Positions 8,989-61,880 of a stretch of DNA of 64,000 nt are shown here, one piece after another (within the stretch, counting starts at the first letter, position 1; each line of letters starts with the position of its first letter). Source of the stretch: a virus (lineage: Duplodnaviria; Caudoviricetes); IMG/VR virus record IMGVR_UViG_3300034101_006325, positions 64,001 to 128,000 of that record. One strand, given 5' to 3'. A program made the position numbers and the translations under genes. Under the pieces are notes generated by a model. That model saw nothing but the letters and a program-made list of their open reading frames with translations. It made no database searches and was not told where the DNA came from.

Positions 8989-8989
8989 T

Positions 8990-9289: not shown

Positions 9290-9303
9290 TTTAATTACAA
9301 TGT

Positions 9304-28500: not shown

Positions 28501-28599
28501 AACACCAGCTGGCGTTCCTATTGGCCCTCCCTGTGCTGGGACCGACAGGTCTATTTCGCGCTCATAAAAGTTTGGTGACCTAAAAATCTGCTCGGACAT
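25516..28599 (-). CDS. Tail sheath protein, paralog A (gp18-like)
   Basis: SPNFYEREID, GVIGPANKGPAFVP, PWFAPAGFNRA, RINPI, IYGQKTLQ, ALDRVNVRRLL. Confidence 0.93.
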   Translation of the reverse strand: MSEQIFRSPNFYEREIDLSVPAQGGPIGTPAGVIGPANKGPAFVPVTVANFNEFVEVFGNLDPKYFGPYAVNEFLKNRNSLTFMRVLGAGSNNTIDDINETLTRGTVTNAGFSLPGLVDANALNRHTAVVQFLAAEHTASNYEVYGMPMFSDNDTFTGFAGTKIPLIRGLVMVPSGSRLVVFNGDQAITSSVTHEDEAGKTASVNGSSIVKIGISSSLGASFAADDGNPGLRIYSASFDPTAENYFAKILNTDPDRFNEHQHYLLGDFAVDDQIASVEAASWVAVLSGSNNSAASDPSLQFREIFGRYDTRFKAPVTPWFISQPFGTTEYDLFKLEALDDGEYANQLYKISIATIKASPDDADKFGTFNVQIRDWNDTDTNPVIIEQFTNCDLNPDSSNYIGKLIGDRKVSYYFDAVDPRERRLIASGKYPNRSKYVRVVISDLVAKKLVPNESLPFGFRGPSLLKTNDNGNVFDILPTGSARLGAYFSGSLTNPSITPSNILTGSVLPPIPYRYKVTRGEINTNTTVAGLPGPKSVALPALYWGVKFERNALSKESEVLNNNVINEKNSLLGSLTKFMGIEKLDVLHTGSGADQFNNNKFTLAKVAFYNSSVNDLTGSASTHMKEAAYLRNATPDSSNYTVSDGTITDRITFATLLSKATPAVFNRFSPFAKFTTFMYGGFDGTNYLDRDARRLNDKSVSFDADTLSIGGASTNYVPDGFSANVSGTGKENNGVSSYMTAVEIMTDPYTAGVNILAIPGIREPYIMDRTSKKVRDYGLAMHVMDIPAYDDGGRRIYDDSAVRPNVKETTSAFDNRVIDNNYAATYFPDVYIDDTRNVRRVKVPASVAALGALGFNDRVSYPWFAPAGFNRAALDFVSNVAVRLSVADRDVLYDSRINPIATFPRLGFVIYGQKTLQINKSALDRVNVRRLLLEVKRIIIGIANKIVFEQNTPAVRNRFVSDAVFQLSLIQTQAGIEAFQVVMNETNNTQVDVDLNRLNGRIVVVPTRAIEYIAIDFIVTNAGVQFV

Positions 28600-28682: not shown

Positions 28683-29936
28683 TTACATTTTATCTACGGG
28701 AATTAAGAAGATACCGTCTGTGATATCTGTAAGTGTATAGACTGTTTCACCATTCTTTAATTTTTTCGGTGTTCGTCCTCTTGGTATTGTTGTAAGTGCT
28801 GGGTCATTTTGGTCAACAGCATCTTCAGCATTTGACGGCTGCACTTTTTGTATACGCCAGCCGGGCCGACGCTGGTCGTCTCGAACATTTCCTCTATCAT
28901 CCAACGGAAGCGTTGGATCATCACTGCCTAGCACGTAGTTGTCGTACTTGACGCTCTCTTCTTGCGGGTTTTCGAGGCCGTTCCTCTCGGTTCCGACGTC
29001 GAAAGAAATAATTGGAGAAGAAATATATCTCTTGACAGGCACAGGAGAACCAGGAGATCGTGTGGCCCAGACATAAGCAGGAACCTTCACCATGAATTTT
29101 TGTTTAATAAATCTCTCGGAAGTTGACATGTCATCGAAATTTGTCTCCATAGAAAAGCTGCCATTTTCTACCATGGCTGTAAACCAATAACCTTTGGGAG
29201 TAGTAATCTTCCAAGATTGAGCTTGAGGCAAAAGCGAAGCAAGCAATTTTTCCATAATTTGATTCATGTGCTGTGTATATTGCGTCCAAATCATCACCTC
29301 GTACGTTGCCGTATAAAATTGAGGTGAAGGCACAACGATAGTTTCAAATATATTGTTTTTCAAATTACTTTTAAGCAACGCACCTTCTTGAACAGAATTA
29401 ACATCTCGAAGAATGCCTACTTCTCTGTCGGTGGTCAGCTGATTTGCGACCTGTTGTGTTGAGGACCCTACAGCAACATTCTGTTGATTTTGAATAAACA
29501 ATCTATTGATGAGATTCTGATAACTTCTATCGGTCTTGTCTAGACGCCTCCTGACGACAAGCTCACCTGTCTGTTGATTTATTCCTCGGCCAACAATATC
29601 ACTGCTGTCTTGAGATATTTCTGTTCTCATTACAGTTATTATTGGCAAGATGAGCGTGTTGCTCCTGTCACGAATAGGCTTGCCTTTTTTAAGAAGCGCC
29701 CATTTTTCTCCAGCAGCAAATATAACTGGTACTTTCTTGACCTCGGTCGAATCCTGCCCACCCACCATTACCTGAATTTCTTTATCAAAAAGGTTGAATA
29801 GAGCTATGTCGACGTCCTCTATTCCGCAGGGCGGAATATAAAGATCACTCTTAAGACCGTCATACCCAGATTTTATTCCTGGGACAGAATAATTTACTTG
29901 ATCTTTAGCGTCAAATCTTGTTGTCATAGGCTTCAA
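28683..29936 (-). CDS. Tail terminator / sheath stabiliser (gp15-like)
   Basis: IEDVDIALFNLFD, KVPVIFAAGEKW, LILPIITVMRT, PSPQFYTATYEVMIWTQY; position after the neck genes. Confidence 0.7.
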   Translation of the reverse strand: MKPMTTRFDAKDQVNYSVPGIKSGYDGLKSDLYIPPCGIEDVDIALFNLFDKEIQVMVGGQDSTEVKKVPVIFAAGEKWALLKKGKPIRDRSNTLILPIITVMRTEISQDSSDIVGRGINQQTGELVVRRRLDKTDRSYQNLINRLFIQNQQNVAVGSSTQQVANQLTTDREVGILRDVNSVQEGALLKSNLKNNIFETIVVPSPQFYTATYEVMIWTQYTQHMNQIMEKLLASLLPQAQSWKITTPKGYWFTAMVENGSFSMETNFDDMSTSERFIKQKFMVKVPAYVWATRSPGSPVPVKRYISSPIISFDVGTERNGLENPQEESVKYDNYVLGSDDPTLPLDDRGNVRDDQRRPGWRIQKVQPSNAEDAVDQNDPALTTIPRGRTPKKLKNGETVYTLTDITDGIFLIPVDKM

Positions 29937-31823: not shown

Positions 31824-32225
31824 TTATTTTAAACGTCCAATTGCCTGACAAAGATCCGCACTTACCTCATAATTTGGCGACATTTTTTTTGAATCCCACG
31901 ACACAACGGTGGAATTCTCGTCAGGCAATACGACATAAGGAACAGGGTCGGCATGCAAATCCTTTGTCCTGAGAGCTGCCGTGCAGCCCGACAAATAATC
32001 GGAATAATTGTCCTCTAGATAACCATAAAAATTTGGAAAAGTTTTTTTAATGTCATCCATGGACGATTTTTTCATGCCAGAGATGTAGATTCCAACGATT
32101 TGCTCTCTAATAAAAAGACGCAGACCCTCCTCAACATTGACTTTTTCCTCGTCAAGATCTTCAGGATTGTCTGCGTTGGTCAAAGTTTTGCGCGAGGCAA
32201 AAGGCTTGTAACCTGTCATCGTCAT
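31824..32225 (-). CDS. Hypothetical protein
   Basis: 133-aa ORF with 4-nt overlap coupling to the upstream gene. Confidence 0.6.
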   Translation of the reverse strand: MTMTGYKPFASRKTLTNADNPEDLDEEKVNVEEGLRLFIREQIVGIYISGMKKSSMDDIKKTFPNFYGYLEDNYSDYLSGCTAALRTKDLHADPVPYVVLPDENSTVVSWDSKKMSPNYEVSADLCQAIGRLK

Positions 32226-32794
32226 TTCTGGAATTTTTCTTTGAGCGATGAGTATTTTTCTCTCAACATCGATTCTGTGGACTTCTTCTTGTCCTTGTTG
32301 CCCTGATCATTCTGAAGGGTCTTGACAGTTTGTGTCTGTTGAACTTGGCGAACAACAGGCTTCTCTTCAGGAGCCTCAATAACTACAGGTCTTGGCTCGG
32401 GACGAGTTGCCTGAACGACTCTTATTGGTGCAGCAGTCACTCTCACATCAAACTTAGGTGCTGCTGGGGCAACCTGGATGGATTCTGCGAATACCTTCAC
32501 GGGCTTCTTAAAATTTAATTGAAACTGCACGGGAGAAAAGTATCTATTCTCTATTAGGACTTCCACGCGAGCAGAATATGTTCCTTCGTCAATTTTGTCC
32601 TTCATCTGAGGAATGACGAACTGCACAACGCCCTCTTCGCCTGTCCCTCTGCCCGAGAACATATACGACACATCATTGCTCTCGCAAATTAGTCGAACCT
32701 TCGCAGGAGAATTGGCGCCTTCAACTTTGATCTTAAAGGCCAGCTCATTGGCCTCTTCCATGTCAAGTGTAACTGTTTCTGTAAGCTGTTCCAT
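32222..32794 (-). CDS. Hypothetical protein (beta-rich N-terminus, charged tail)
   Basis: 190-aa ORF; ATAATTA motif at 32801-32807. Confidence 0.7.
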   Translation of the reverse strand: MEQLTETVTLDMEEANELAFKIKVEGANSPAKVRLICESNDVSYMFSGRGTGEEGVVQFVIPQMKDKIDEGTYSARVEVLIENRYFSPVQFQLNFKKPVKVFAESIQVAPAAPKFDVRVTAAPIRVVQATRPEPRPVVIEAPEEKPVVRQVQQTQTVKTLQNDQGNKDKKKSTESMLREKYSSLKEKFQK

Positions 32795-41014: not shown

Positions 41015-41338
41015 TTACTTTTTATCTGCTGGTGGTGCACTCTTTTTAACACTTTGAAGATAGTCACGAAATGCTGCCATCATTACACTTGCATCTACGT
41101 CAGCAAGGGGACCAAGAAGACCTGCCATTGTATCTTTGACTAAATTTTTCTTTTTATCAAGATCTTTAATTTGATCTAGTTTTTGTAAAACTGCTTGTAT
41201 CGGTGCTGATTTGTCCATAGCTGACGCAAATTTAGTTCCTAATGTTCCCATTTTTACAGGAGTTTCAGGATTTTCAGAGAGTGATTTGGAAAGTTCTTCA
41301 CGAATTATTTTTCGAAGCATGGATTCTGTAATTTTCAT
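41015..41338 (-). CDS. Small putative internal head protein
   Basis: MKITESMLRKIIREELSKSLSE N-terminal motif; GAGGA SD. Confidence 0.7.
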   Translation of the reverse strand: MKITESMLRKIIREELSKSLSENPETPVKMGTLGTKFASAMDKSAPIQAVLQKLDQIKDLDKKKNLVKDTMAGLLGPLADVDASVMMAAFRDYLQSVKKSAPPADKK

Positions 41339-41421
41339 ATTTCCTCAGTTATCAAAAACAAAACAACAGTTCATATTTATGTCTCTAAATTAAAAAATAT
41401 TTTTATAATTATGAGAAAATT

Positions 41422-42684
41422 ATGTCAAGTCATAAAAAATCACCAGTCAGCATGTTGCTGAAAAATTTCATAAATGAAGCAAAAACAGGCACGCTGCGGT
41501 TGTTCGACAGCATCTATCAGATGATAGAAGACAAAAAAGAATATTCATCGGACTCTGAAAAGTTCAAAATTTTTATAAATGAACTCATGCCACATTTAAA
41601 TTTATCGGGGAAGAGTTTGAAAAAAGGTTCTTCAAGGATAGTGTTTATGCTTGAAGATAAACAGGTTTTGAAGGTAGCTTTAAACGAGGCAGGTTTTGCA
41701 CAAAATGGAATGGAAGCAACAATTGGAATGGACGATTCTGTCAGTGAAGTTGTTGCTCCTGTGTTGGACACAAGTGATATTGTCGACTACAACGGCTTTT
41801 TATGGATTGTTTCGCAAAAAGTAGAACCGTTAACTGATGATTTAGTTGAAAGAAGTTGGCCTGAATTTTCTGATCTTCTTCGAAAGGCTGCAACAACAAA
41901 TGAAAAAATTGTCGGCATAAAGATGGGTGTAGGCGGCGGTGTGGGTCCTAGGTCTCCTAGCGATGAGAAAACAGTTGTCCCTGGTGAAGAAACAAAAGTA
42001 GAAATTCCACGGGCCGCGGCCAAAAAAATAAAAAGCAAAAATGAAAAAGCAAAATTATCTGCCGAAGCAGAAAAATTACTAAAAAGTCTAGATGAAAACT
42101 TCTTTGAAGCTTTTAGAACTTTCACTAGAAAATATAGAGGAGCTACAACAGCCGACCTTTTGAAGCCAGACTCATGGGGCATCGATAGAGGTAAGTTAAA
42201 GCTTCTAGATTATGGGTATACGAGAAGAATAGCAGAGGATTTCTATGTCAGCGGTCGTCCTACAGGAACCGAAAAAGCAAAAGAAAGCATGATTGCGAGA
42301 AATCAAGAGAGAATACAGAACATTAAATCCACAGTGGCCGACAATATTGATACAATAGAAAATACGAAGAATATTCCTCCAATGGTATCGCTGCTTCTGC
42401 TGGTTCGTGGCGTAGTGGCAGGAATACCTCTCAATATAGAAACATTTGCGGTCGGTAATCCTCTTAAGCCCCTGACGGAAACAGAGAAAGCTACAGCAGC
42501 AGAAGCAATCAGATCCAATCAAGGAAAAGTCGAGAGAATTATTGACATGGTTACTGACTCGTCATTAAAAAATAAATTATATGATGAGCTGGATGATATT
42601 CTCTTAACAACTGGGTCGTTAGGAAAGAAATCACAGAAAGAATCTTTGATTAGAAAATTCGTTCTAGAGTACCTTAAAAATTGA
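41422..42684 (+). CDS. Atypical protein kinase-like protein
   Basis: KKGSSRIVF (P-loop-like), VLKVA (beta3 Lys), AQNGME (alphaC Glu), ADLLKPDSWG (catalytic-loop-like), LLDYG (DFG-like); ATAATTA at 41405-41411 on the + strand. Confidence 0.68.
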   Translation: MSSHKKSPVSMLLKNFINEAKTGTLRLFDSIYQMIEDKKEYSSDSEKFKIFINELMPHLNLSGKSLKKGSSRIVFMLEDKQVLKVALNEAGFAQNGMEATIGMDDSVSEVVAPVLDTSDIVDYNGFLWIVSQKVEPLTDDLVERSWPEFSDLLRKAATTNEKIVGIKMGVGGGVGPRSPSDEKTVVPGEETKVEIPRAAAKKIKSKNEKAKLSAEAEKLLKSLDENFFEAFRTFTRKYRGATTADLLKPDSWGIDRGKLKLLDYGYTRRIAEDFYVSGRPTGTEKAKESMIARNQERIQNIKSTVADNIDTIENTKNIPPMVSLLLLVRGVVAGIPLNIETFAVGNPLKPLTETEKATAAEAIRSNQGKVERIIDMVTDSSLKNKLYDELDDILLTTGSLGKKSQKESLIRKFVLEYLKN

Positions 42685-43590
42685 TCAGACTGTTGGTTCC
42701 CATTTCTTGATGTCTCTTCGCTTGGCGGAAGCGGCATCAAAGAATATAATTTCGCCTTCTCCCCCTCGAACTCGTCGGACGCCCATGTTGTCCGGCTTGA
42801 AATCGACCATTCCAAGCCTGTAATGATTTTGAATACCTTTAATGAATTTTGTGAACCAATCAGGTGACAATCTGTAGCGTTCTTCAACTACTGCCATCGT
42901 ATCTTTTGGCAGCATTTGTATAAGCTTTGCTACGATGTCTGCAGTCCTTCTGTCAGCAAACTTTGTCGGCACAGCACCCGGCAAGCCCTGATCAGCAGCA
43001 TATGTCGTCATCGCAGTAATCTCTTGAGGAGACATGCCTTGTTTCTTTAGCTTTTTTTCGTAGTCCTTTATTGACTTCTGCTCTTCGGACACAATCTTTG
43101 CTATACCTTCGGAGATCAAACGCCACAAAACTTTCCAATCAGGATCTTCGCCAATTTTATCAGCATCCTGCACCTTCTCAGAGATCGACCATCCGATATT
43201 TCCGATATTGCTCTTGAAGATGCCTGTGGCCAAGACGCCAGGAAGTCCTCCTCCGACGTCAGATCCTGAATATAAGGCATCTTCTATCTCTGATGCCCTT
43301 GAAGCACCAGGCTCAAGCTTTAAGACTTTATCAGAACCCAGAGAAAATGCGCTACCTTGACGTCCAGACCCCAAGTATTTTATGGATCCTTGAGAAAAAA
43401 TTTTTTTCCAATCATCAAAATTGTCTTGTAAAATAGAAAATTCGTCGACATCGAGACCTAACGATCTAAAGACCCTAGATTTTCTAAGTTCATCTCTTAT
43501 TGCTCCCATTTGTAGCTCAGAAAGCTCAGGAGAGTTTGATGTCATCTCAGTCAAGATTGTTCTAATATAACGACGCAATAATTCTGTCAT
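42685..43590 (-). CDS. Ser/Thr protein kinase-like protein
   Basis: YLGSGRQGSAF (GxGxxG), VLKLE, MVDFKPDNMG (DxKxxN), IIFFDAA. Confidence 0.78.
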   Translation of the reverse strand: MTELLRRYIRTILTEMTSNSPELSELQMGAIRDELRKSRVFRSLGLDVDEFSILQDNFDDWKKIFSQGSIKYLGSGRQGSAFSLGSDKVLKLEPGASRASEIEDALYSGSDVGGGLPGVLATGIFKSNIGNIGWSISEKVQDADKIGEDPDWKVLWRLISEGIAKIVSEEQKSIKDYEKKLKKQGMSPQEITAMTTYAADQGLPGAVPTKFADRRTADIVAKLIQMLPKDTMAVVEERYRLSPDWFTKFIKGIQNHYRLGMVDFKPDNMGVRRVRGGEGEIIFFDAASAKRRDIKKWEPTV

Positions 43591-43646: not shown

Positions 43647-44129
43647 ATGAACATCTTTGTACTCAACGAAGATCCTGTACAAGCTGCAAAAGATCAATGC
43701 GACAAACACGTCGTAAAAATGATACTTGAAAGTGGACAAATGTTGTGTGCTGCACACGAACCAGGACTATCGCCATGGAAGAGAACACACTACAATCATC
43801 CTTGCACTATTTGGACTAGATCATCGAAAGAAAACTATCGATGGTTGGCAGTGCACGGTCTTGAACTTTGTGCTGAATACACCCGACGCTACGGGCGGAG
43901 ACACAAGGCCGAGGATGTTTTGATCTGGTGTGCTGAAAATGTTCCTGAAAGTGTGCCCGATGTGCCTCAAACTCCCTTTACAGTAGCAATTAAAAATCCA
44001 GATTATCATAAGGACAATGCTGTCGACTCTTACAGGGCATATTACCTAGGTGAAAAAATTAGATTCGCTAAGTGGAAGTATTGTCCCCCGCCGAAGTGGT
44101 GGATCGATGCGCTTTCTTCCGCAAAATAA
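43647..44129 (+). CDS. Pyrimidine-dimer DNA glycosylase (DenV / endonuclease V-like family)
   Basis: MNIFVL..DP..AA...CDKHVVKMILES.QML, HYNHPCTIW..SKENYRWL, AYRAYY motifs. Confidence 0.75.
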   Translation: MNIFVLNEDPVQAAKDQCDKHVVKMILESGQMLCAAHEPGLSPWKRTHYNHPCTIWTRSSKENYRWLAVHGLELCAEYTRRYGRRHKAEDVLIWCAENVPESVPDVPQTPFTVAIKNPDYHKDNAVDSYRAYYLGEKIRFAKWKYCPPPKWWIDALSSAK

Positions 44130-44427
44130 GGGGATTTTCCTTAATTTTCCAAAATTGTTGCTCAAGAGGAGGAATTTCACCTCTCCTAAAAAACATCAGC
44201 TTTCTGCCATTTGTAGAATCATAGACGCCTATGATCGTAATCTCACCAGCATGTATTAGATCATGGCAAATATGACAGACTATACTTAAATTATGATTAT
44301 CATTGGTGCATCTAGGATCGCACCGAGGAATAATGTGATGAATGTTGAGAGCGGAAGGATTGTCATAACCGCAAATTTCACATTTGTCTTTTTTAAGTTT
44401 TGTCTGTTGACTATGACGTCTCTTCAC
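44068..44427 (-). CDS. Small HNH endonuclease
   Basis: CEICG...LNIHHIIP...NDNHNLSIVCHICHDLIH. Confidence 0.82.
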   Translation of the reverse strand: MKRRHSQQTKLKKDKCEICGYDNPSALNIHHIIPRCDPRCTNDNHNLSIVCHICHDLIHAGEITIIGVYDSTNGRKLMFFRRGEIPPLEQQFWKIKENPLILRKKAHRSTTSAGDNTST

Positions 44428-44459: not shown

Positions 44460-45017
44460 TCACAAAATTCTCAATATTTCGTGACACTTATCCTGAATAC
44501 TCTTGGGAAGCATCCTGGAAAACATTTCCACATCATTTAATGCAATAAATCTTCTCATGTCCGTTCCGGACACATTAGGTGTTTTAGATCCCCTCTTTAT
44601 TCCCATTCTTATTATTTGCCCGCTGTCGAAAAGCTTAGGTGCCTGTTTTCGCAAATTGACAGGAGTGAATCTAGAAATATCCTCAGAGTCTGAGTAAATT
44701 GTATGCACATCGTATGAGTAATTTTTCTCAGCTCGATTCAACGTATTAAAAACCATGGTCACAGGAGTGACTGGTGGGTCAGCATAAATTACTTCAACAT
44801 TGCCGAGCAGCCTTAAAGACGGCTTTACAAACTTTTCCATAACAATTCTCATCTTGTCACCCTGAATCGACAGCTCTCCTTTTCGAGGCCTGTCTGCTGT
44901 GGAGGCAAAAACAAGGACCTCGTCATTTTCAGAAGAAGCTAGACGAACAAGAGCATCATGACCTGCATGGTAAGGTTTGAAACTTCCAGGAATCAATCCA
45001 ATTCTTTTTGAGTTCAT
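44460..45017 (-). CDS. Cytidylyltransferase-like (HxGH) nucleotidyltransferase
   Basis: IGLIPGSFKPYHAGH and C-terminal VSGTDMRR. Start moved to ATG 45017. Confidence 0.75.
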   Translation of the reverse strand: MNSKRIGLIPGSFKPYHAGHDALVRLASSENDEVLVFASTADRPRKGELSIQGDKMRIVMEKFVKPSLRLLGNVEVIYADPPVTPVTMVFNTLNRAEKNYSYDVHTIYSDSEDISRFTPVNLRKQAPKLFDSGQIIRMGIKRGSKTPNVSGTDMRRFIALNDVEMFSRMLPKSIQDKCHEILRIL

Positions 45018-45028
45018 TATTAAATAAA

Positions 45029-46408
45029 TCAAACTGGGCTTTGGTTCACAATGCCAGAAATCCACTGGCCTGAATAAAATTCCTCGACTCTTAGACGGTC
45101 ACCTTTTGAAACTGCAAATGCCACTGCTGCTCCGGCTGCTGCAGAAGTAGAATTTGCAGACTGTCCAGGTACATCATTGCCAGTCGCTGGATCGAATCCT
45201 ACAACAGATCCATCTGATTTTACACCACCAAACCATCCTGTCTTTGTGTAGCCATTACCCATCACATATATCCAATTTGAATTTCCAGGCGTTCCATCAG
45301 GCCAGCCAGACCTTTCCAGCGGTGTCTTGGGTGTGTCGCCATGGACTGTAAAGACTAAATTATCTGCGAGAGTCTTGTTGGAACATGTCGGATCAGAGAT
45401 TCCTGATAAATCACTCATAAACATGTCTAAAATCAATCCTAAATGATCGACAGTCTGCAAGAGGCTGCCCATGTCGGCAAAAGCACCGTGCGGATCATCT
45501 CTAAAAACAGGCGCAATTACACAGGAAGTTAAACCAAGCTTGAATGCCTTTGACGTGGTAATTAAAGTCTTTGCTAGCTCTCTGAGCTTATTAGGTGTAG
45601 AAACTGTAACACCATAACGGGACAGATCATCCTGGGATGGTTCTAATAATGCCGCCAAATTCTTTCCTAGGAAATTAGCACTCTTTTTTCCAATATTTAA
45701 CGGTCGCTGCACAGTGGATCTAGTCGAAGCAGAGTTTAGTCCAAGGAACGCCTTGTAGTATGCTTCAAAAAGTTTGGAATCCTGTTCGACTTCGAGTATT
45801 GAACGACTGGCAGCACTGTTGAACAGCTGAACCATTCCATCAGCATTTCCTACAGTTGTAAGTTGAGGAGAACCGGGCGCAGTGCCAAAGGCAACAGGGG
45901 TAATTCCAATGACAGGAATTAAGGTCGGATTTGCCCTTTGTATCGACGAACAGACGGCCATCATGCTTTGTCCTGCTCCGACGGTTGCAGAAGAACCAGG
46001 CGTCGGTGTGTGAGTCTGGTTTACTCCTGCCATGAAAGCCGATATTCTTTTTGTCCTGTCTTTGTTTTTCCAAGGAGATTGTGGGACATGATACAAGGTT
46101 TTGTCAGCATCGTCTGCCTTGACCTGCTGACCCTGAGCATGAAATGCAAAATTGGAATTTGTGGAAGTTGCAACTTCATTGTGAGGCCAAAGTAGCTGGA
46201 ACCATGCAAAGCCTCCATCACCGGCGACCAAATGGACGGATCTAAGAGTTGTAGAACAAGTGGCTTCGTCGGCCAATGCTGTTCCTGCTGTATCATTAAT
46301 TACGTTGAGAACCTGAGATCTATCAAGAGCCAATGCTGCGCCGGCTGCTGCAGTCCATCTCAAAAATTTTCTTCTAGATTCACCTCGTAAATTCTTTAGA
46401 TCCGACAT
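45029..46408 (-). CDS. Tat-exported protein, DUF1501/DUF1552-like architecture
   Basis: Twin-arginine signal SRRKFLRW followed by a hydrophobic stretch and ALA; RDDPHGAF and VHGDTPK segments. Confidence 0.7.
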   Translation of the reverse strand: MSDLKNLRGESRRKFLRWTAAAGAALALDRSQVLNVINDTAGTALADEATCSTTLRSVHLVAGDGGFAWFQLLWPHNEVATSTNSNFAFHAQGQQVKADDADKTLYHVPQSPWKNKDRTKRISAFMAGVNQTHTPTPGSSATVGAGQSMMAVCSSIQRANPTLIPVIGITPVAFGTAPGSPQLTTVGNADGMVQLFNSAASRSILEVEQDSKLFEAYYKAFLGLNSASTRSTVQRPLNIGKKSANFLGKNLAALLEPSQDDLSRYGVTVSTPNKLRELAKTLITTSKAFKLGLTSCVIAPVFRDDPHGAFADMGSLLQTVDHLGLILDMFMSDLSGISDPTCSNKTLADNLVFTVHGDTPKTPLERSGWPDGTPGNSNWIYVMGNGYTKTGWFGGVKSDGSVVGFDPATGNDVPGQSANSTSAAAGAAVAFAVSKGDRLRVEEFYSGQWISGIVNQSPV

Positions 46409-46426
46409 AATTCTTTCCTTTCAATA

Positions 46427-47152
46427 TCACTCGCAAGAATGTGCGGCCGACAATATGACAGCAACAGCTATTGACTTGCCTTTTTCAGGTGTTGAAGCAC
46501 TATTCACAATATCTGTACAAATTGCAAGATGCTGAGAAGTAGCAGGTCTGCCAAGAAGACATGTGACAGCAGGCTCGGTGCACCAATCATTTTGGTCAAA
46601 TACAGAAGTGCCAACACCATCTTCTTGACACTGTTGCAGACCAGGCATGGCTGTAATTATCTCTGATGATGCTTGAACAAAAATATCAAACTGTTTTGCT
46701 GCACCTGAGGACGTCCAAACGATTGACTCTCCCACGCGAGCATCATAAACAGCACCTCCGAGAGCTGCTGATCCTTCAGAAAAAAGCTGTCCTGCAGTTG
46801 GTGGATCTGCTGTTAATGTCATGTTCACACCAAATTCTTCCAGAATATTTCGAAGTGTCGCCACAGGAATCTTCTGACAGGAATGAAGTCTAGTCCTAAT
46901 CTCTGGTGGTCCTTCCTCCTGCCGCTGGGCCAATACTGTCATAGGATCCTTGCTGCCATCTTCACCCAAGCCGGACATATGATCAAATGTATTGTCTTCA
47001 TCACCTGTATAATCATCATCAGGAGGAGGATCTTCAGGGCTATCGACAGGTGGATCTTCCTTTGGTGGAATTAAACCGTTTGGTGGATCAATTCCACAGG
47101 ATGCATTAAGGAAAACCAATGGGAGGATCAAAAATAATCTTTTGTAATTCAT
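46427..47152 (-). CDS. Cys-rich putative lipoprotein
   Basis: Signal MNYKRLFLILPLVFLNAS-C, Pro/Asp-rich linker, several Cys residues. Confidence 0.7.
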   Translation of the reverse strand: MNYKRLFLILPLVFLNASCGIDPPNGLIPPKEDPPVDSPEDPPPDDDYTGDEDNTFDHMSGLGEDGSKDPMTVLAQRQEEGPPEIRTRLHSCQKIPVATLRNILEEFGVNMTLTADPPTAGQLFSEGSAALGGAVYDARVGESIVWTSSGAAKQFDIFVQASSEIITAMPGLQQCQEDGVGTSVFDQNDWCTEPAVTCLLGRPATSQHLAICTDIVNSASTPEKGKSIAVAVILSAAHSCE

Positions 47153-47167
47153 ACTGTTTTACCTGCA

Positions 47168-48334
47168 TCAGAAATTTACGAAATCTTCATGCTTAAACAT
47201 AAAACGAAGTGTCTCCTTGACGTCCATGCCAGATGACTCGTACTTTTTAACGAGAGGATCTAGCACGGAAGGCGGGATTGTCGCAAGGTCATTGACAACG
47301 TCTTCCTTTGACATCACCATGTTCCACAAACGAGTGACCACGCAATCTGAGACAAGAGGATCGTCTGCAATTGCTGCACCTAAGGCAGGAAGATCATTTG
47401 CTTCAATTCCAAACCTCCACGCAGTCTTTTCTCCACCATTCAACCAATGACTCATCTCAGACTTAATAGGATCTGGCAGGACGGGTGTGTTGACCTGACT
47501 TTGGCTCGTCCACATGCCATTTTCATCAAAATTAGCAAACAATGGCGCAATATGGTTCATAGTCGCGTGACAATTGGCACAAACAACGGACTGTGTGTCT
47601 CTAAAATCAATAGGAGAATTAGAAATTGATTCGAACGACCAAGGAGAAATATAATCCTTTCCTTCTATTTTCTGAGGATCTTTTGTGGATTCTGCAGGAA
47701 ACTTTTGACACATAAACACCTCCTGCATCCAACGGACTCTTCTAAATGCCATGTTGCTGTAAAACTGCTTCATCGAACCAGGATTGGTCAAAACACCTGA
47801 ATGAACTTCGACGCCATTATCACAATCCCCATCCACGAAGGCTCCATCTGAAAAGCTGGGACAAGTTCCCTGTGTTGCAGTGAAAATATCTGTAAAAGGC
47901 CGCCCTTCAACGGAAACTCTAGCAACAAATACAGGAGAAAAATCTAATTCTTGGGAACCACCTTGACGAAGAGTATCTCTCCAAAATTTTACCATCCGAC
48001 CAGCAAAGCGAGGATCGTCCAGCAAAGAATCTACTTCTAGTTCATATGCAGCCTTTTTGTCGTCAGCATTTTGAACACGTCTAATTTGACTCAAAGGAGG
48101 AAGTGTCCTGACCAGCTTTAAAGATGCTGTTCTCAATGCAGCATTATAATCCAAAATTCTGTCATCCAAAACGGACGACTTAGCAGACTCACCTCCGACG
48201 CCCGAAGCTGTAGAAGATTCGTCTGCGGTTCCTCCGGGGTCGCCTCCGTAGCTTCCTGTCCCAAATCCTGACGGTTCTTCGGTGCAGGCTGATAAAACCA
48301 AAAAAGACGCCAAATATTTGCATAACCTCTTCAT
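47168..48334 (-). CDS. Putative lipoprotein with CxxCH motif (DUF1549/DUF1588-like)
   Basis: Canonical lipobox LSA-C; LRTASLKL..TLP; CANCH heme-c-type motif; C-terminal PLVSDCV. Confidence 0.72.
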   Translation of the reverse strand: MKRLCKYLASFLVLSACTEEPSGFGTGSYGGDPGGTADESSTASGVGGESAKSSVLDDRILDYNAALRTASLKLVRTLPPLSQIRRVQNADDKKAAYELEVDSLLDDPRFAGRMVKFWRDTLRQGGSQELDFSPVFVARVSVEGRPFTDIFTATQGTCPSFSDGAFVDGDCDNGVEVHSGVLTNPGSMKQFYSNMAFRRVRWMQEVFMCQKFPAESTKDPQKIEGKDYISPWSFESISNSPIDFRDTQSVVCANCHATMNHIAPLFANFDENGMWTSQSQVNTPVLPDPIKSEMSHWLNGGEKTAWRFGIEANDLPALGAAIADDPLVSDCVVTRLWNMVMSKEDVVNDLATIPPSVLDPLVKKYESSGMDVKETLRFMFKHEDFVNF

Positions 48335-48397: not shown

Positions 48398-48799
48398 TCA
48401 ACCTGTGCTGTCGGTATAAGAGCCTGGTGGATCAGTGACTCTCCGCTGAGTTTCAGTCGCAGGCCCTTTGTAGGTCTCTAGCATACGTCTCAGAGTCTTC
48501 ACGATGGCATCGTAACCAACTACAGAAACTCCACCAGATGTTGTATAGGCGAGAATTGATCCAGCCAATGTCTCGCCAAATGCCTTTGGAACAGGCAGAC
48601 CATACTTGAAACCAACAATGCCAGTCAATGCGCCAACAATCAGCGCATGCAATGGCAAAGTTGCCCAGTAAATTCTTCGCCAGCCAACATGTGCATCAGT
48701 TTCTCTTCGTCTATTACCTAGGATCAAATTACGAACAACCTGCCCACACATACCTATGATGAATGGAACTACTCCAAGTATGATCAGCCAATCCTGCAT
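48398..48799 (-). CDS. Membrane protein, possible holin
   Basis: Three hydrophobic segments and a charged C-terminus; ATAATTA at 48806-48812. Confidence 0.5.
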   Translation of the reverse strand: MQDWLIILGVVPFIIGMCGQVVRNLILGNRRRETDAHVGWRRIYWATLPLHALIVGALTGIVGFKYGLPVPKAFGETLAGSILAYTTSGGVSVVGYDAIVKTLRRMLETYKGPATETQRRVTDPPGSYTDSTG

Positions 48800-48846: not shown

Positions 48847-49065
48847 CTACTTCTTCTTTTTCATCGTCTTCTTAGCATCAGCTGTTCCGTGCTTCACGGC
48901 GTCTGCTCTAGGCTCTCCAGAGGCAATTCTTCTGGCAATCATCACGTCTGCAAAATCATTCTTACCGTCTTTATTGAGGTCATCCTTGCCTTCAGCCTCT
49001 GACATCTCAACCTCAGTGACTACCTCTCTAATAATTCTTCTTAATTCGCTTATGCTGATCTTCAT
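48847..49065 (-). CDS. Small putative head protein with an EF-hand/dockerin-like loop
   Basis: MKISISELRRIIREVV N-terminus; DLNKDGKNDFAD loop; ATAATTA at 49072-49078. Confidence 0.7.
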   Translation of the reverse strand: MKISISELRRIIREVVTEVEMSEAEGKDDLNKDGKNDFADVMIARRIASGEPRADAVKHGTADAKKTMKKKK

Positions 49066-49088: not shown

Positions 49089-50522
49089 TTATTCTTTTAG
49101 ACTAATAAGCATAATTGACGAACCACAGCCATAGATGCGTGAAACTCCGGCAGAAAATGCCACTTGTTTTTCAGACTTTCCGTCAGAAGCCCTAAATTTA
49201 AATCTGTCATACCTTAATTCATTATCAGTGTACCAGTAATCAGGGCCGGTCGATCCAACTAGTTCAAAACCAGCAGATAGATAACCCTTTCCTGTGCCAA
49301 TTCTCCTGTCGACGTAGGTCATAATACTAACAAAACCATTAATCTTGGCCCATGTCTTTGCTGTCTTTAAAAGCTTTGAAAGTGCACCAGGAACTGAAAT
49401 TCCAGGTAGGTTACTGAAACGAGCAATCTCGATAGAATTTTCATACTTTGTTGCGTGACGAGGAACCCTGAGCGACAATGCTGAAACGACGTCTCCTCTT
49501 CTATCTTTCAAACCCCAGCATATTTTAGCAGGTGTATAACCTGATACATGGGATATATTAAAGAAACTTCGCTGTTCATCTGATCCCAGCTCAACGACAC
49601 GTGTGGACCAAGTTTTACATTTCTTTGAATGAAGTCCAAGACGGTGCTGAATCATAGATTCGACAATTGGTCTTTTGTCTCTCCACTCATCCTCAAAAAT
49701 TTGGAATAAATCTATATTTTTTTCCTCAGCAAGTCTGGCTTTCAGCTGATGAGAACTTTTGTCAAATTCATCTTCTGGTTTTCCTGCCTCACTATGCCAA
49801 TACAAACCATGACATTCTATTCCAAATTTTTTGGTAGGCACATACACGTCAATTTCTTTTGGTGACAAGGCAGATCGATCTCCGCTTATTGCATCCTTCG
49901 ATATTGACTTTACATAGTTGTACACATCTAATTCCCAATTAGATTTTCCGACAGGATAACACTTGTAGCATCTACTTCCTCGCTCGAATGCTTGCAATGT
50001 TTTTGGTTGACTTTCACCGCATTTGACGCATTCAAATAACAAATACTGCTGTTGACGTGATCTATACTCGTCAAGAGGCGTCAATAATTTAAATTCTCCT
50101 GACCTCTGAATAATTCTTTCTTCAATCGAAGTAGTTGCCAAGGTTTTGCTTGTTGATATTTTCTGTAATGTCTCCTGGGTATGCCTACGGCCGTAAAAAT
50201 GATTCCCACTGCCCGACATTTTGAATGCCTGCAAAGCTATTCTTTCATCGGTAGTTTTGTCCTTTCCTTTGTTCCAAGCTTCTGCATGACCACCTATGGC
50301 ACCCCCTTCTTTCATTGCCAATCTTGAATGGTCCTTGCAATACTTCTTGAAGGTGAATGAAACATATCTAACTTGATTGCCGCATTCAGCGCAAGTTGGT
50401 TTAATGTCATCATGTAAGACTTTAATTGTGTATTCTTCAGAACTTAAACCGTGAGAAGTCTTGACATGGTCAGAGAATCTCTTTAAATCATCGTTATGAT
50501 AACTACACAGCTTACAATCCAT
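49089..50522 (-). CDS. Hef-like homing endonuclease (Zn-finger/NUMOD3 + PD-(D/E)xK + C-terminal domain)
   Basis: EIDVYVPTKKFGIECHGLYWHS nuclease motif; IEIARF...GALSKLL...IMTYVDRR..TGKGY C-terminal domain; located directly downstream of the capsid gene. Confidence 0.78.
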   Translation of the reverse strand: MDCKLCSYHNDDLKRFSDHVKTSHGLSSEEYTIKVLHDDIKPTCAECGNQVRYVSFTFKKYCKDHSRLAMKEGGAIGGHAEAWNKGKDKTTDERIALQAFKMSGSGNHFYGRRHTQETLQKISTSKTLATTSIEERIIQRSGEFKLLTPLDEYRSRQQQYLLFECVKCGESQPKTLQAFERGSRCYKCYPVGKSNWELDVYNYVKSISKDAISGDRSALSPKEIDVYVPTKKFGIECHGLYWHSEAGKPEDEFDKSSHQLKARLAEEKNIDLFQIFEDEWRDKRPIVESMIQHRLGLHSKKCKTWSTRVVELGSDEQRSFFNISHVSGYTPAKICWGLKDRRGDVVSALSLRVPRHATKYENSIEIARFSNLPGISVPGALSKLLKTAKTWAKINGFVSIMTYVDRRIGTGKGYLSAGFELVGSTGPDYWYTDNELRYDRFKFRASDGKSEKQVAFSAGVSRIYGCGSSIMLISLKE

Positions 50523-50634: not shown

Positions 50635-52527
50635 TCAGATGATGTTCATGTCAAGCACAGTCACAGTTCCGTAGAAGTCGCTACGAACTGTCTTCTTACC
50701 GTAGCGAGTCATCACGCCCTTACGTGGTGTGAAATCTTCAGGTGCGAAGATTGTTGGTGTCACGATGAGTGGAACGTATGGTGCGTACACGTAGCCTGTC
50801 TCGAGGTAGCTGCCGCCCTTGTAGCCAACGAGGATCTTGTTACGAACGAAGTAGGGATCCTTGTAGACCGTGAAGCGGTTGCTGATTGTGCCGATTGCCT
50901 CTGCACCGATTGTGAATGGTGAAGCAACCTGACCCTCGCCGTCGATCGAGAACTTGGGCTTGTAGAGGACCGAGCTCTCGAGGATTGTTGCAACGTCTGG
51001 GCCTGTGACGAGGAAGTTCGCCGAGCCGCGGAGTGTCTTGCGGTGGATTGTGTTGGCGACGTCGATGATTGTCTCGACGAGTGTCTCGTACCACTCACGG
51101 ACTGTACCTGTGAAGGCTGGGCCGATTGAGAGGGCCGAGGCGAGCGAGACCGATTGACCTGTTGTCTTGTTCACGAATTTGCCGGGAGCGCGTGACCAGT
51201 AGTAGTTGGCGCCGTTGGCCTGTGTGACGAGGTCGTTGAGGATCTCGCGATCGATCTCGAGGGCGATCTGCTCCGAGAGGATCGAGGTGAGCTCAACCTC
51301 TGCGTCCATCGAGTGATAGGCGTTGAGGTCCTGTGCGAGCTCTGGTGACCAGCGAGCACGGAGCTTGCGGGTCTCGGCTGTGATTGCAATCGACTCGATC
51401 TTGATGTCGATCTCGGGGATTGCAGGAGCAGGTGTTGAACCAAAGTCCGACTCGAACGATGGAACTGTGACTGTTGCTCCGCTGTTCTGATCAACAGTGA
51501 GACCTGTTGAGATGGCGAACGAGAGCTTTGCGGTCGCTGTTGTTGGAAGGTTTGTGGCTCCATTTGCGCCCTTGAGGAGGAACTGGAGGTAGTTGCCGTT
51601 GAGTGCGTCTGGGACGAACTTGAGGCTTGCACCTGTTCCTGTGAGTGTTCCGCGCTTGTTTGCGCGGCGGAGGTTGAGCACACCTGTTCCACCTTGGTAA
51701 CTGTCTCCCCATGCTGTTGCATTTGTCACCGCGCCGTTGAAGAGCGAGAACTGCTGAACTGCAGTGAGGTCAGCTGCTGGCTCTGCTGCAACAACAACTG
51801 ATGTTGGCACGTAGAGGAAGAGAACGTCGAGGTCGTTGTTTGTGAGGGCTGTCTCGACCTGAGCATCGAAGTCCACCAAGCGAGCGTTTGATCCACTGAA
51901 TGATGTTCCGAGTCCAAGCACCGTGCCATCCGACCATGTTGTTCCATCTGCACCGAGGTATGAACCCGAGTAGACTGTTCCTACTGTGAGGTCGAGTGGC
52001 GAAACCGAACCTGTGACGCGTGAGTAACCTGTGCCAACGAGATCGTACATACCGCCTGTTGCGAGCGATCCGCTCTGCACGCCTTTGCCGCGTGGATTGT
52101 TATAGATCGAATCACCGCGTGTGTATGTCGAGTTGGTGTCGCCTGCAACCTGACCAACATTGCTGCCGTATGTATAGTCGAGGTAGAAGATGAGTCCTGA
52201 GGGGAGGCTCATTGGCTGGATCGAAACGAGCTCGTTGGCAACGAGGCCACCGAACACGCGGCGAACGATTGGGAAGGCGATGTTGCTGAAGCCTTGAATC
52301 TGTCCGCTGCCAACGATGTTGCCGCCGCCGGTCGAGAGAGCATTGCTCTCCTTAAGGACCTGTGCTGCCTGGTTCTCGAGGAGCTGTGCCATTGTCTCGC
52401 GGCGTGAGCCGTCGAGGCCACGGAGGAGGCCTGTGCGGCTCCACTTCTCTGTCAAACGGGCGCGCTCAGCACCGACGTGCTTCTCGCGGATGCCCTGTGC
52501 TAACTGATCTAATGTAAAGTTCTTCAT
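50635..52527 (-). CDS. Major capsid protein (T4 gp23-like)
   Basis: KWSRTGLLRGL, LLENQA, FPIVRRVF, VSIQPMSLPSGLIFYL, TRKLRARWSPELAQDLNAYHSMDAEVEL, YAPYVPL, FTPRKGVMTRYG. Confidence 0.97.
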   Translation of the reverse strand: MKNFTLDQLAQGIREKHVGAERARLTEKWSRTGLLRGLDGSRRETMAQLLENQAAQVLKESNALSTGGGNIVGSGQIQGFSNIAFPIVRRVFGGLVANELVSIQPMSLPSGLIFYLDYTYGSNVGQVAGDTNSTYTRGDSIYNNPRGKGVQSGSLATGGMYDLVGTGYSRVTGSVSPLDLTVGTVYSGSYLGADGTTWSDGTVLGLGTSFSGSNARLVDFDAQVETALTNNDLDVLFLYVPTSVVVAAEPAADLTAVQQFSLFNGAVTNATAWGDSYQGGTGVLNLRRANKRGTLTGTGASLKFVPDALNGNYLQFLLKGANGATNLPTTATAKLSFAISTGLTVDQNSGATVTVPSFESDFGSTPAPAIPEIDIKIESIAITAETRKLRARWSPELAQDLNAYHSMDAEVELTSILSEQIALEIDREILNDLVTQANGANYYWSRAPGKFVNKTTGQSVSLASALSIGPAFTGTVREWYETLVETIIDVANTIHRKTLRGSANFLVTGPDVATILESSVLYKPKFSIDGEGQVASPFTIGAEAIGTISNRFTVYKDPYFVRNKILVGYKGGSYLETGYVYAPYVPLIVTPTIFAPEDFTPRKGVMTRYGKKTVRSDFYGTVTVLDMNII

Positions 52528-55068: not shown

Positions 55069-55314
55069 TCAAAGACTACGAGCAACTCTCTTGCGAGTTT
55101 CAACAACTTTTTCAAGTCTACGACGAAGTCTGCCTTCTTCGATCTTGAGAGCCTTCATATAATCCAACTTCTTCTCAAGCGACTTATCTGAACCAAATTC
55201 ATCGGCATCAACTTCTTCTGCGTCTTTTGCACGATCCTCAGTCGATTCCATGTCTCCGAACTTAGCAACTTCTTCCATTATTATCTGCTTGAGCAATTGA
55301 CTTGTTAATTTCAT
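55069..55314 (-). CDS. Small putative head protein
   Basis: MKLTSQLLKQIIMEEV start at 55314; GGAG SD; ATAATTA at 55342-55348. Confidence 0.7.
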   Translation of the reverse strand: MKLTSQLLKQIIMEEVAKFGDMESTEDRAKDAEEVDADEFGSDKSLEKKLDYMKALKIEEGRLRRRLEKVVETRKRVARSL

Positions 55315-55397
55315 TGTTAAAAATCTCCGTAACAACTTTTGTAATTATCAGCCACACCGAAAAAAAAATAAAAAATTTATATTTGATAACTCAGAAA

Positions 55398-56272: not shown

Positions 56273-56887
56273 TCAGTCCTTTCCTTTAGAAGAAATAATA
56301 TCATTTAATATTCTGTCTATCCTGTCAGACTTATTAAAAACTTTTCTAAGCTCATCTGAGCCTATTTTCTTGCCTTCAGGAAGCATAAAAGCTCCAGGGG
56401 TCGATGGTTCAGAAACATAGTCCCAACAAATTAGCTGAAAGTCGTCTTGGACTACAAAATAATCTCCTTGTTTTTTTGTCGAACCCACACCTCTCGATGA
56501 AATTCCTAATTTGACGCCACTTTCAACAAGAGACTGTAGAATTTTACCAGAAGGTGTATCAAGAAGTTCAACGGTGCCATACACGACGCCACTATCTAAA
56601 TAAGCTTCTTTGACAATATGAGAGACATTTTTAAGATTGACGACAGAGGAGTCGGGATGATCAAGTTCTCCCAAAGCTCTATTTTCAACAATAAATTTTT
56701 GATAATTTCTTACTTCTCTTTGAAGAACATCAAGTGGGTAAATTCTTCCATTCTGATTTAAAGTATCTGCTTTTTGCAGTATACCTTTCATTATAACTTT
56801 ACCGTTATTTTTCTCTCTAGACTCCTTAATCATTTCAGGAGTATAGTCAAAAACTTCATATGAATTTAAAAGTCTTAAATCTTTCAT
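56273..56887 (-). CDS. Prohead core protease (T4 gp21-like)
   Basis: GILQKADTLNQNGRIYP, RALGELDHP, LGISSRGVGS, WDYVSEPSTPGAF. Confidence 0.95.
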   Translation of the reverse strand: MKDLRLLNSYEVFDYTPEMIKESREKNNGKVIMKGILQKADTLNQNGRIYPLDVLQREVRNYQKFIVENRALGELDHPDSSVVNLKNVSHIVKEAYLDSGVVYGTVELLDTPSGKILQSLVESGVKLGISSRGVGSTKKQGDYFVVQDDFQLICWDYVSEPSTPGAFMLPEGKKIGSDELRKVFNKSDRIDRILNDIISSKGKD

Positions 56888-60278: not shown

Positions 60279-61880
60279 TCAACGATAAAGCCAAGAAAAA
60301 TCAGAAACATCAACATGTTTTATCTGAGAAGGATCTCTTGGCTTGTGCACATCTCTGGCATTAGGAATAAGTCCTTTAATGGCGGGATTTGTTAAAGGTC
60401 TTGCAGATGACAAGTCTCCTGGCATATTTTCATTTCTATGCACTTTGGTGGCTTTCAACATTGCCATCGCGACAGCCATGGCTTGATCATTATTGTTTGA
60501 CTCTCCTGCAACGAGCCAAGATCCAATAGCCAGACTCATTATTAGATCATCATGAGCATCTTTGGCAGCTTGAGCTCTATTACCGTTCCAAATAAATGCC
60601 TGCAATTGATCGTATAATCTTTGTGAATACACCTTGACAATAGAATTTCTTATCAGCTCTTCAAGTTTTGCAAGAATTTGAGTTCTTGATTTTTGCTGTG
60701 TAGAAAAACCAGGAATGGCATCTGGATTACTCGATCTAAACTCAAATAAATCTCCTGTTGCTCCCTGATAATACAATCTTGGATAACCTTCGTCTCTTAA
60801 TTTTACACATGTAAAATATCCAAAGGTATTTTGTTCGGGACATAGAAGTGCATCATTGTATTTTTTACCCCATTCAAACAAAAGATCTGCAAATTTATCT
60901 GGGGGTAATTTGCCCATAAATTCTGCAACAACTTCGCAATTTTCATTATCTATGACATGAAAAGCTGAGAAATCTCCTGCATCGCCGCGGGCGACGTCTG
61001 CAGAAATTACATATTTTTTACCTGATTCAGGCCGGCGCCACACCCAAACTCCGCTTTGAGGCCCAGCTTTTTCTATTGGATTTTTTATTGATTCTCTTAT
61101 GCTCTCTAAATCTTTTGATTGCAAAAAAGTATCGCCAGAAGATATAAAATCACAAAGAAACTCTTGAGAAATACTTCTCTTAGAAAGATTTCTTGTTTCT
61201 TTTACAAACCATTCTTCGTCGTGCTCTGGGTGCACATACCATGGTAATTTTATGGTATTGAACTCATTTTGTTTTGTTTCGCCCTCCATCCACAAGCGGT
61301 AATATTGACCACCCACACCATTTGGTGTTGAAATAATAATAGCATTACCTCCAGTAGACAGAGTAGGATACAAACCTGTCCAAATATCTTCAAAGTCTCT
61401 AATGAATGCAGCCTCATCGACTATTAGAAGTGAAAGAGCTTCAGAACGACCTGCATCTGGGGACGTTGGAATGGCTGTTATATTTGAACCATTGTGAAAT
61501 CTTATGGACTGTTTTGTGGGTTCATATTTGGTAAGAAGCAGCCAGTTGGGCAATCCTTCAAGCATGATCTTTACCTTTTTGATAAAGTTCATTGCTGTCT
61601 GAAGCTTGGTAGCAATTACCAAGATATTTTTATCTTTTTTAAAGATTGCAAACCATGTTGCATAAGCTGCAGTAACAGTTGATAAACCTAGCTGACGAGA
61701 TTTAAGCACTATATTAAAACGATTTTTCTCAAATGAAGCTACACATTCATCCTGAAAATCATAAGTTTCAAATGGAATTAGACCCCGCAGCATGTGCTGG
61801 ATCTTCACGTATTTCTTCATGAAGTAGACGGGGTCTTTGCCACACCGAAGTATTTCGGCAATTTGTTCTTTTTTTGTCAT
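60279..61880 (-). CDS. Terminase large subunit (T4 gp17-like)
   Basis: DPVYFMKKYVKI, KSRQLGLST (Walker A), LLIVDEAAFI (Walker B), IISTPNG, ISADVARG and HDDLIMS nuclease motifs; no intein seen. Confidence 0.97.
   Translation of the reverse strand: MTKKEQIAEILRCGKDPVYFMKKYVKIQHMLRGLIPFETYDFQDECVASFEKNRFNIVLKSRQLGLSTVTAAYATWFAIFKKDKNILVIATKLQTAMNFIKKVKIMLEGLPNWLLLTKYEPTKQSIRFHNGSNITAIPTSPDAGRSEALSLLIVDEAAFIRDFEDIWTGLYPTLSTGGNAIIISTPNGVGGQYYRLWMEGETKQNEFNTIKLPWYVHPEHDEEWFVKETRNLSKRSISQEFLCDFISSGDTFLQSKDLESIRESIKNPIEKAGPQSGVWVWRRPESGKKYVISADVARGDAGDFSAFHVIDNENCEVVAEFMGKLPPDKFADLLFEWGKKYNDALLCPEQNTFGYFTCVKLRDEGYPRLYYQGATGDLFEFRSSNPDAIPGFSTQQKSRTQILAKLEELIRNSIVKVYSQRLYDQLQAFIWNGNRAQAAKDAHDDLIMSLAIGSWLVAGESNNNDQAMAVAMAMLKATKVHRNENMPGDLSSARPLTNPAIKGLIPNARDVHKPRDPSQIKHVDVSDFSWLYR

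Follow-up and report, generated by a model that had tools for sequence, protein, structure and literature searches.

We analysed a 64,000-nucleotide stretch of DNA (the window) that spans bases 64001-128000 of a 200,303-base-pair viral record, IMG/VR IMGVR_UViG_3300034101_006325, from an uncultured freshwater T4-like giant phage. The window contains the structural region of a T4-like myovirus and, within it, two convergent genes that we call A and B. The best explanation of our results is that the products of A and B are members of a large, phage-only and uncatalogued superfamily of minimal kinase-fold enzymes. Both proteins have near their N-terminus a short amphipathic segment ending in [LI]-x-E, the motif of the T4 prohead protease. 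We tentatively propose that this segment serves as a tag for loading the two kinases into the capsid, from which they would be injected with the DNA.

Evidence for a kinase fold

A and B are genuine, conserved genes. The original prediction had placed two open reading frames (ORFs) at this site, and its coordinates, strands and sizes were all exact (Table 1). In a collection of 5.8 billion proteins, we found 33 homologues of B and 19 of A, none of which carries a name or a Pfam domain. No similarity to the window was found at the DNA level among 50,697 phage records, and tblastn of A and B against these records likewise gave no match. Sequence searches of the PDB yielded no significant family for either protein. 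The best PDB profile match of A was SteC, an effector kinase of Salmonella, which aligned over the glycine loop and Lys only (E 0.05) and was rejected as not significant.

Structure was more informative than direct sequence searches. We compared the predicted models of B (predicted local distance difference test, pLDDT, 83; predicted template modelling score 0.72) and A (pLDDT 77) with 48,161 representative PDB chains, without a prefilter. All 50 of the top structural neighbours of B were kinases or kinase-like phosphotransferases (Z 5.6-6.9, 127-185 residues aligned), as were 49 of the top 50 neighbours of A (Z 4.6-6.4). These matches include Mps1, ULK4, Rio1, Ark1, PINK1, PKR, APH and Bud32.

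The residues expected of a kinase active site are present and conserved. Every motif that had been named for B (GSGRQG at residues 74-79, VLK at 89-91, DFKPDN at 263-268 and FFD at 283-285) and for A (GSSR at 69-72, VLK at 82-84, DLLKPDS at 245-251 and DYG at 263-265) was found in its protein. Invariance in the B family was counted over 24 homologues (Table 1). In a wider alignment of 44 sequences, reaching down to 21-30% identity, G76, G79, K91, D263, N268 and D285 are still invariant, as is F284. Across 17 homologues of A, the invariant residues of the N-lobe are G69, S71, R72, K84, A86, N88, G91, Q94, N95 and E98. Homologues in cultured jumbo phages retain most of these, N88 not being kept, and the Lys, the catalytic Asp and the metal-binding Asp are invariant in them as well. 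The full set of a catalytic Asp, an Asn five positions later and, further along, a metal-binding Asp is complete in B and present in part in A.

Structural neighbours and conserved catalytic residues together bear out the prediction that both proteins adopt a kinase fold, which the models make very probable. Judging from the conserved residues, A and B are probably also catalytically active, B being the likelier of the two, and proteins are somewhat favoured as their substrates.

Both domains are reduced. B stops 16 residues past its metal-binding Asp and therefore has no activation loop; it also lacks the activation segment, the APE motif and the substrate-binding helical lobe. In the model, the helices that link the N-lobe to the catalytic loop form the remainder of the domain. 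Early termination is common in this family, with 69 of the 146 remote B relatives listed ending at, or no more than 3 residues past, the metal-binding Asp. A shares this core up to about residue 280; beyond D263 comes a helical domain specific to its family, which has no kinase match and for which the protein atlas offered no usable match. A had been credited with an insert of about 100 residues between N-lobe and catalytic loop. The insert exists, but its size was overestimated: relative to a short paralogue, A', it amounts to about 60 extra residues.

Relationships of A and B

Although BLASTP found no match between A and B, their family profiles do align. Profiles built from each family alone matched over the N-lobe (E 3.8e-5). 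With hhalign, the wide B profile matched the short A-type family over 163 columns (93% probability, E 2.6e-7), and in this alignment the catalytic Asp and the metal-binding Asp, which in B belongs to FFD, are in register. These alignments indicate that A and B are diverged members of one superfamily and, on the strength of the profiles, distant homologues.

The B side of this superfamily is large. At E values up to 0.001, the B profile reached 377 representatives at 50% identity in a set of 1.84 billion clusters, none of them named. One class of its relatives is about 400 residues long and carries the domain C-terminally. Some relatives are giants: P0106 and P0108 contain three to five tandem copies of the mini-kinase, with a peptidoglycan-binding domain also present in P0108. 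Another, P0154 (2382 residues), combines a mini-kinase domain with a T4 Rnl1-type RNA ligase, a cytidylyltransferase-like (nucleotidyltransferase) domain and other kinase-like segments.

The A side extends into cultured phages. A matches phrog_4301, a family of unknown function, over residues 57-277 (E 9.6e-18; 2.0e-19 in the genome search), and B has no match to it. The 235-residue paralogue A' lies just before the window (genome 62384-63091; L010:2384-3091), matches phrog_4301 at E 1.2e-25, retains the invariant residues of A and has a tag-like start. A tblastn search with A' hit 42 phage records, making it the only query to reach cultured phages. Short A-type proteins occur in the cultured jumbo phages XacN1 (ORF170), Xoo-sp13, fHe-Yen9-04 and the phAPEC6 group (gp500c), and some annotators have named them 'putative protein kinase' (e.g., in Klebsiella phage Muenster).

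We also considered the relationship to T7 gp0.7, the phage kinase to which the original prediction had likened the pair. The wide B profile aligned with T7 gp0.7 in hhalign over the N-lobe only (85% probability, E 6.7e-6), and one of the nearest atlas clusters of B carries PF27024 (Phage_T7_kinase) in part. T7-group kinases appear among the weaker viral fold matches of A, and the catalytic segment of T7 gp0.7 looks similar to these proteins by eye. Neither A nor B matched a PHROG kinase family (phrog_2828 or phrog_15752), and a single remote B relative touched phrog_15752 weakly (E 0.084). The comparison with T7 gp0.7 is thus apt for architecture, but homology is possible only as a remote relationship, and these alignments make the link suggestive only.

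A portable N-terminal tag

Both proteins had been described as starting with an amphipathic motif of the kind found in head proteins. Amphipathic segments are indeed present, at residues 1-15 of B and residues 11-19 of A. In B, a second such end, L-S-E, follows at residues 23-25 (43516-43524), with S24 and E25 invariant. The B segment was modelled with low confidence, which suggests that it is not packed on the core.

This segment is not confined to A and B. A loose version of its pattern gave 38 matches in 227 putative genes, 17 of them in the first 30 residues, where 4 were expected. The clear cases comprise about ten small or medium-sized proteins without known function, all ending in [LI]-x-E. 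One of these, a 154-residue protein encoded in the prohead-core cluster, has no match in cultured phages. Close relatives of B carry an additional copy of the leader in front. At the loci of remote B relatives, the tag starts many neighbouring proteins that are not kinases, including seven in one locus (L024) and others in L018, L025 and L026. Neighbours tagged in this way that have Pfam names are a NUDIX hydrolase, an LRV/HEAT-repeat protein, and DUF6886 and DUF7178 proteins.

Because it occurs on non-kinase neighbours and in extra leader copies, we interpret the segment as a portable tag. We had considered the helix of B to be an intrinsic part of the kinase domain, given that at least 90% of the wide family retain its Glu and that it seemed to align with T7; this was rejected as the main interpretation once the tag was found on non-kinase neighbours. 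The predicted head-protein motif therefore stands as a portable tag ending in the T4 prohead-protease motif [LI]-x-E, in a genome that encodes a gp21-type protease.

Comparable ends are known in T4, where MKTYQEFIAE opens both IPII and IPIII (the same pattern, with I-A-E at its end), and gp24 and gp23 have L-x-E maturation sites. T4 Alt has been reported to be trimmed at both ends.

Similar segments turned up elsewhere. The gp23-type major capsid protein of this phage has a tag-like N-terminus in its first 15 codons (MK...T..QL....I.E). It also has an L-K-E at residues 58-60, the closest [LI]-x-E ahead of the conserved Gly-rich segment, which aligns near the maturation site of T4 gp23. A ends in a tag-like amphipathic helix (residues 406-418; window 42637-42675). 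In the related locus L006, a HAD/5'-nucleotidase-like gene (L006:7308-7979) immediately preceding the B homologue has a C-terminal copy of the tag-like motif. Finally, an Fe/Mn superoxide dismutase (L008:8706-9419; genome 28706-29419) has an N-terminal extension of about 30-45 residues with a weak amphipathic motif.

Arrangement of the genes and features of the window

The stop codons of A and B abut as predicted, TGA being followed directly by TCA at 42682-42687. We assessed conservation of the arrangement in two viral loci, L005 and L006, together with the longest contigs of homologues, matched by equal size. In L005, the homologues of B (8001-8837, +) and A (8841-10076, -) lie tail to tail, two genes beyond gp23, with a gap of 3 nucleotides. 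In L006 the order is gp23, the HAD-like gene, B, a tagged gene of 93 residues, and A on the opposite strand. Three further pairs of homologues may share a contig, since their longest contigs are of equal size, and adjacency of A and B is retained in all contigs long enough to judge. Hence, the pairing and its place beside gp23 are conserved, but zero spacing is not a kept feature. B has the same orientation as the capsid gene region and lies directly downstream of it in three genomes.

It had also been suggested that the convergent arrangement allows antisense cross-regulation. This lacks support: relatives do not keep the abutting stops, and the junction shows no conspicuous terminator or regulatory element. 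In a promoter and terminator scan around the pair, counts were like those of shuffles, and the convergent genes had no terminator between them. The idea was dropped because the scan was no different from shuffles.

The predicted ATAATTA upstream of A is present at 41405-41411, within a TATAAT-type box (Table 1). It is the top enriched 7-mer upstream of genes in this genome, with 12 of its 47 copies in such positions (11.6-fold). It also lies upstream of the genes at 48398-48799, 48847-49065, 32222-32794 and 55069-55335 and of A'. Several of the genes it precedes are tagged or in the head region, and a near-copy stands ahead of gp23; this distribution is a point for late expression. Ahead of five genes the motif ends exactly 6 nucleotides from the start codon, a spacing that would yield leaderless or near-leaderless messenger RNAs. 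Taken together, ATAATTA and its xATAAT form may represent the promoter class of a sigma factor of the phage's own, and we infer a promoter role for the box ahead of A. The window contains no match to the T4 late promoter TATAAATA.

Table 1. Positions in the window of A, B, their parts and other landmark genes. Functional names are predictions.
Feature	Position	Strand	Remarks
ORF A	41422-42684	+	420 residues; atypical minimal kinase-like; tag, core ~20-280, disordered insert, C-terminal helical domain
-10-like box of TATAAT type, containing ATAATTA (41405-41411)	41404-41411	+	10 nucleotides before the ATG of A
A, amphipathic tag (residues 11-19)	41452-41478	+	Ends in I-N-E; hydrophobic pattern and Glu conserved in the A family; pLDDT <50 for residues 1-20
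A, glycine loop GSSR, ATP lysine K84 and N-x-x-G-x-x-Q-N-x-x-E segment	41620-41715	+	Invariant residues given in the text
A, insert between N-lobe and catalytic loop	41899-42096	+	Residues 169-196 predicted disordered (pLDDT 33-47); absent from A' and short homologues
A, catalytic-loop equivalent (D245...D250) and metal-binding DYG (D263)	42154-42216	+	D245, D263 and G265 invariant
A, C-terminal helical domain (residues 280-420)	42259-42681	+	Conserved only in long A homologues; outside the fold matches
ORF B	42685-43590	-	301 residues; minimal kinase-like; ends 16 residues past the metal-binding Asp
B, metal-binding Asp segment FFD (D285)	42727-42744	-	F284 and D285 invariant; the last 16 residues, up to the stop, are conserved too
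B, catalytic loop (residues 261-270)	42781-42810	-	D263, K265, P266 and N268 invariant
B, ATP lysine K91	43318-43320	-	Invariant
B, glycine-rich loop (residues 72-82)	43345-43377	-	G74, S75, G76 and G79 invariant
B, amphipathic tag (residues 1-15)	43546-43590	-	Ends in L-T-E; E15 at least 90% conserved
Sheath	25516-28599		
gp15-like sheath stabiliser	28683-29936		
Tagged gene of unknown function	41015-41338		
Tagged gene of unknown function	48847-49065		
gp23-type major capsid protein	50635-52527	-	Pfam Gp23, E 1.6e-77; adjoins the A/B pair in relatives L005 and L006
Tagged gene of 154 residues	55398-55862		In the prohead-core cluster, with the protease on one side and a scaffold gene on the other
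gp21-type prohead protease	56273-56887	-	Pfam Peptidase_S77, E 1.4e-24; would-be remover of the tags
T4-type portal	57759-59828		
Large terminase	60279-61880		

Several neighbouring genes deserve mention. The divergent neighbour of B is a denV-type pyrimidine-dimer glycosylase gene (43647-44129, +), which is convergent with an HNH endonuclease ORF (44068-44427, -); the 3' ends of these two overlap by 62 bases. Immediately downstream of the capsid gene is a homing-endonuclease-like gene containing NUMOD3 (49089-50522), and L005 has a comparable insertion. Planctomycete-type genes at 45029-48334 encode a PSCyt2/PSCyt3 (DUF1549/DUF1588) protein and a 459-residue protein with a twin-arginine signal. 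They are possibly a hint to the host.

Packaging and its alternatives

The explanation we favour combines the fold, the tag and the genomic context. A and B would each consist of an N-lobe for ATP binding, followed by a helical segment, the catalytic loop and the metal-binding Asp, dispensing with an activation loop and a substrate-binding C-lobe. Both would be active phosphotransferases, most likely acting on proteins. The tag would dock them onto the prohead core, as the capsid-targeting sequence does in T4, and the gp21-type protease would then cut it off. The mature kinases would be carried in the head, enter the cell with the DNA, and modify host machinery or defence proteins ahead of any phage gene expression. 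They would thereby resemble T4 Alt in mode of action and T7 gp0.7 in chemistry. From the sequences, we judge capsid loading plausible at a little under an even chance, and packaged and injected kinases as a complete explanation would fare about the same. We give lower odds to a broader generalization, in which minimal kinases of this uncatalogued superfamily, widespread among uncultured T4-like and jumbo phages, would be loaded into capsids via a protease-removable tag and injected as a pre-made arsenal that acts on defence or take-over targets of the host ahead of phage transcription.

A number of results weigh against the favoured explanation. With respect to the fold, neither A nor B matched Pkinase (PF00069), APH, RIO or ABC1 in Pfam up to E = 1, and no NCBIfam model matched either protein. 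The best Foldseek matches of B, to APH(2'') at E ~3e-4, had low template modelling (TM) scores of 0.2-0.3. The individual Z values are middling, at most 6.9, so it is the uniformity of the hit list that carries the weight. The link to T7 gp0.7 did not reach significance in HMMER, nor did it when the ~400-residue class supplied the profile. With respect to activity, the Asn-equivalent position, a metal ligand, varies across the A family. This makes A the less certain enzyme, and it may be weakly active or inactive. With respect to packaging, amphipathic helices with a terminal Glu could have some other function. A is on the minority strand, transcribed against the late structural genes. A' is also on the minority strand, among genes for a 5'-3' exonuclease, a dUTPase and a RecA-like protein, and the cultured homologues occupy early-looking regions, within strings of small genes or close to terminal repeats. 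The phAPEC6 virion proteome of 62 proteins does not include gp500c, a distant, untagged homologue of A type.

Given the minority strand, the replication genes around A' and the early-looking sites of its homologues, early kinases acting in the cytoplasm would fit these observations equally well. The same kinases would then be made during infection, like T7 gp0.7 and JSS1_004, and phosphorylate host or phage proteins, with the N-terminal helix used for partner binding, membrane association or localisation. The known phage protein kinases of T7 type are all expressed rather than delivered (PMC12345140), and the virion list without gp500c agrees with this. However, gp500c is untagged, and its absence from virions is therefore no test of tagged proteins. 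A purely cytoplasmic role also fits poorly with a tag that ends in a head-protease motif and is common to many unrelated proteins, including one in the prohead-core cluster, and with B being co-oriented with and directly downstream of the capsid region in three genomes. We regard cytoplasmic action as a real possibility that falls well short of an even chance.

A second alternative concerns the substrate: one or both proteins might phosphorylate a small molecule or nucleic acid, such as a nucleotide, a sugar, an antibiotic-like compound, RNA or modified DNA. The best Foldseek matches of B are aminoglycoside phosphotransferases, and both proteins have Ark1, an RNA kinase of archaea, among their best structural matches. 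Neither A nor B has an activation loop or a peptide-binding lobe, although T7 gp0.7, Rio and Bud32 do without the same elements and nevertheless act on proteins. P0154 fuses the domain to RNA-ligase and nucleotidyltransferase-like domains, and a nucleotidyltransferase-like gene (44460-45065) lies three genes away from B; this neighbour, however, is not conserved in L005 or L006. Since the majority of the top structural matches are protein kinases, we consider a non-protein substrate improbable.

Least probable of all is a pairing of kinase and pseudokinase, in which the pseudokinase (most likely A) would bind nucleotide or serve as a regulator or scaffold for the other protein, and the adjacency of the genes would reflect a two-protein complex: A has its variable metal ligand and an extra C-terminal domain of unknown function, and the two genes are adjacent wherever contigs are long enough to judge, but the Lys, catalytic Asp and metal-binding Asp of A are invariant, cultured jumbo-phage homologues included, and A-type genes also occur alone (A', XacN1 ORF170 and phAPEC6 gp500c).

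Most of what is known of phage protein kinases comes from T7-like podoviruses, in which one early enzyme has many host targets, including several defence systems (PMC12345140). If A and B are active, kinases of related architecture would be common in large uncultured phages. If the tag loads them into the head, they would act at DNA entry, a timing that matters against immediate host defences. Our limited literature searches found no kinases among phage virion cargo. Should the favoured explanation be true, A and B would be the first virion-delivered protein kinases in bacteriophages, and the known set of injected phage enzymes, which includes ADP-ribosyltransferases, RNA polymerases and restriction inhibitors, would be widened. 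Virion cargo of T4-like phages could then be predicted from metagenomes by looking for the tag, a simple marker at the sequence level.

Comparison with known systems

The phrog_4301 proteins of cultured jumbo phages are genuinely homologous to A and A' and share their invariant residues. Unlike A, they are short (~190-215 residues) and have neither the insert nor the C-terminal domain. The phAPEC6 member, gp500c, also differs from A in having no tag, and is about 24% identical to A'.

Among cellular enzymes, Rio1/Rio2, Bud32 and Ark1 share with A and B a reduced C-lobe without an activation loop, and belong to the best-scoring structural neighbours (Z 5.1-6.7). They differ in being cellular, in having other substrates and partners, and in showing no detectable sequence relationship to A or B.

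The proposed delivery has its counterpart in T4. Here as in T4, where it is found on the internal proteins IPI-III and the ADP-ribosyltransferase Alt, an amphipathic N-terminal tag that is short and has [LI]-x-E at its end occurs on otherwise unrelated proteins, and both phages encode a gp21-type protease. T4 Alt is a ready-made delivered enzyme, which delivery of A and B would parallel. In T4, denV adjoins ipII and ipIII; here, the denV-type gene adjoins B. Unlike the T4 tag, that of A and B is longer and not homologous in sequence, and its predicted cargo, which would be cut and packaged, consists of kinases.

The T7-type kinases, gp0.7 and its homologue JSS1_004, serve in host take-over and phosphorylate host defence proteins, and are said to occur almost exclusively in Autographiviridae (PMC12345140). 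Like A and B, they have a phage-encoded minimal kinase domain that ends shortly past the metal-binding Asp, and in T7 gp0.7 the glycine loop, the Lys and the catalytic loop with its Asp...Asn follow in the same order. The T7 type is early, non-packaged and found in small podoviruses, whereas A and B are a diverged, tagged pair beside the capsid gene of a T4-like giant myovirus, and they lack the C-terminal shut-off domain of T7 gp0.7. By this analogy, T7 gp0.7 appears to be the closest functional counterpart of the A/B pair.

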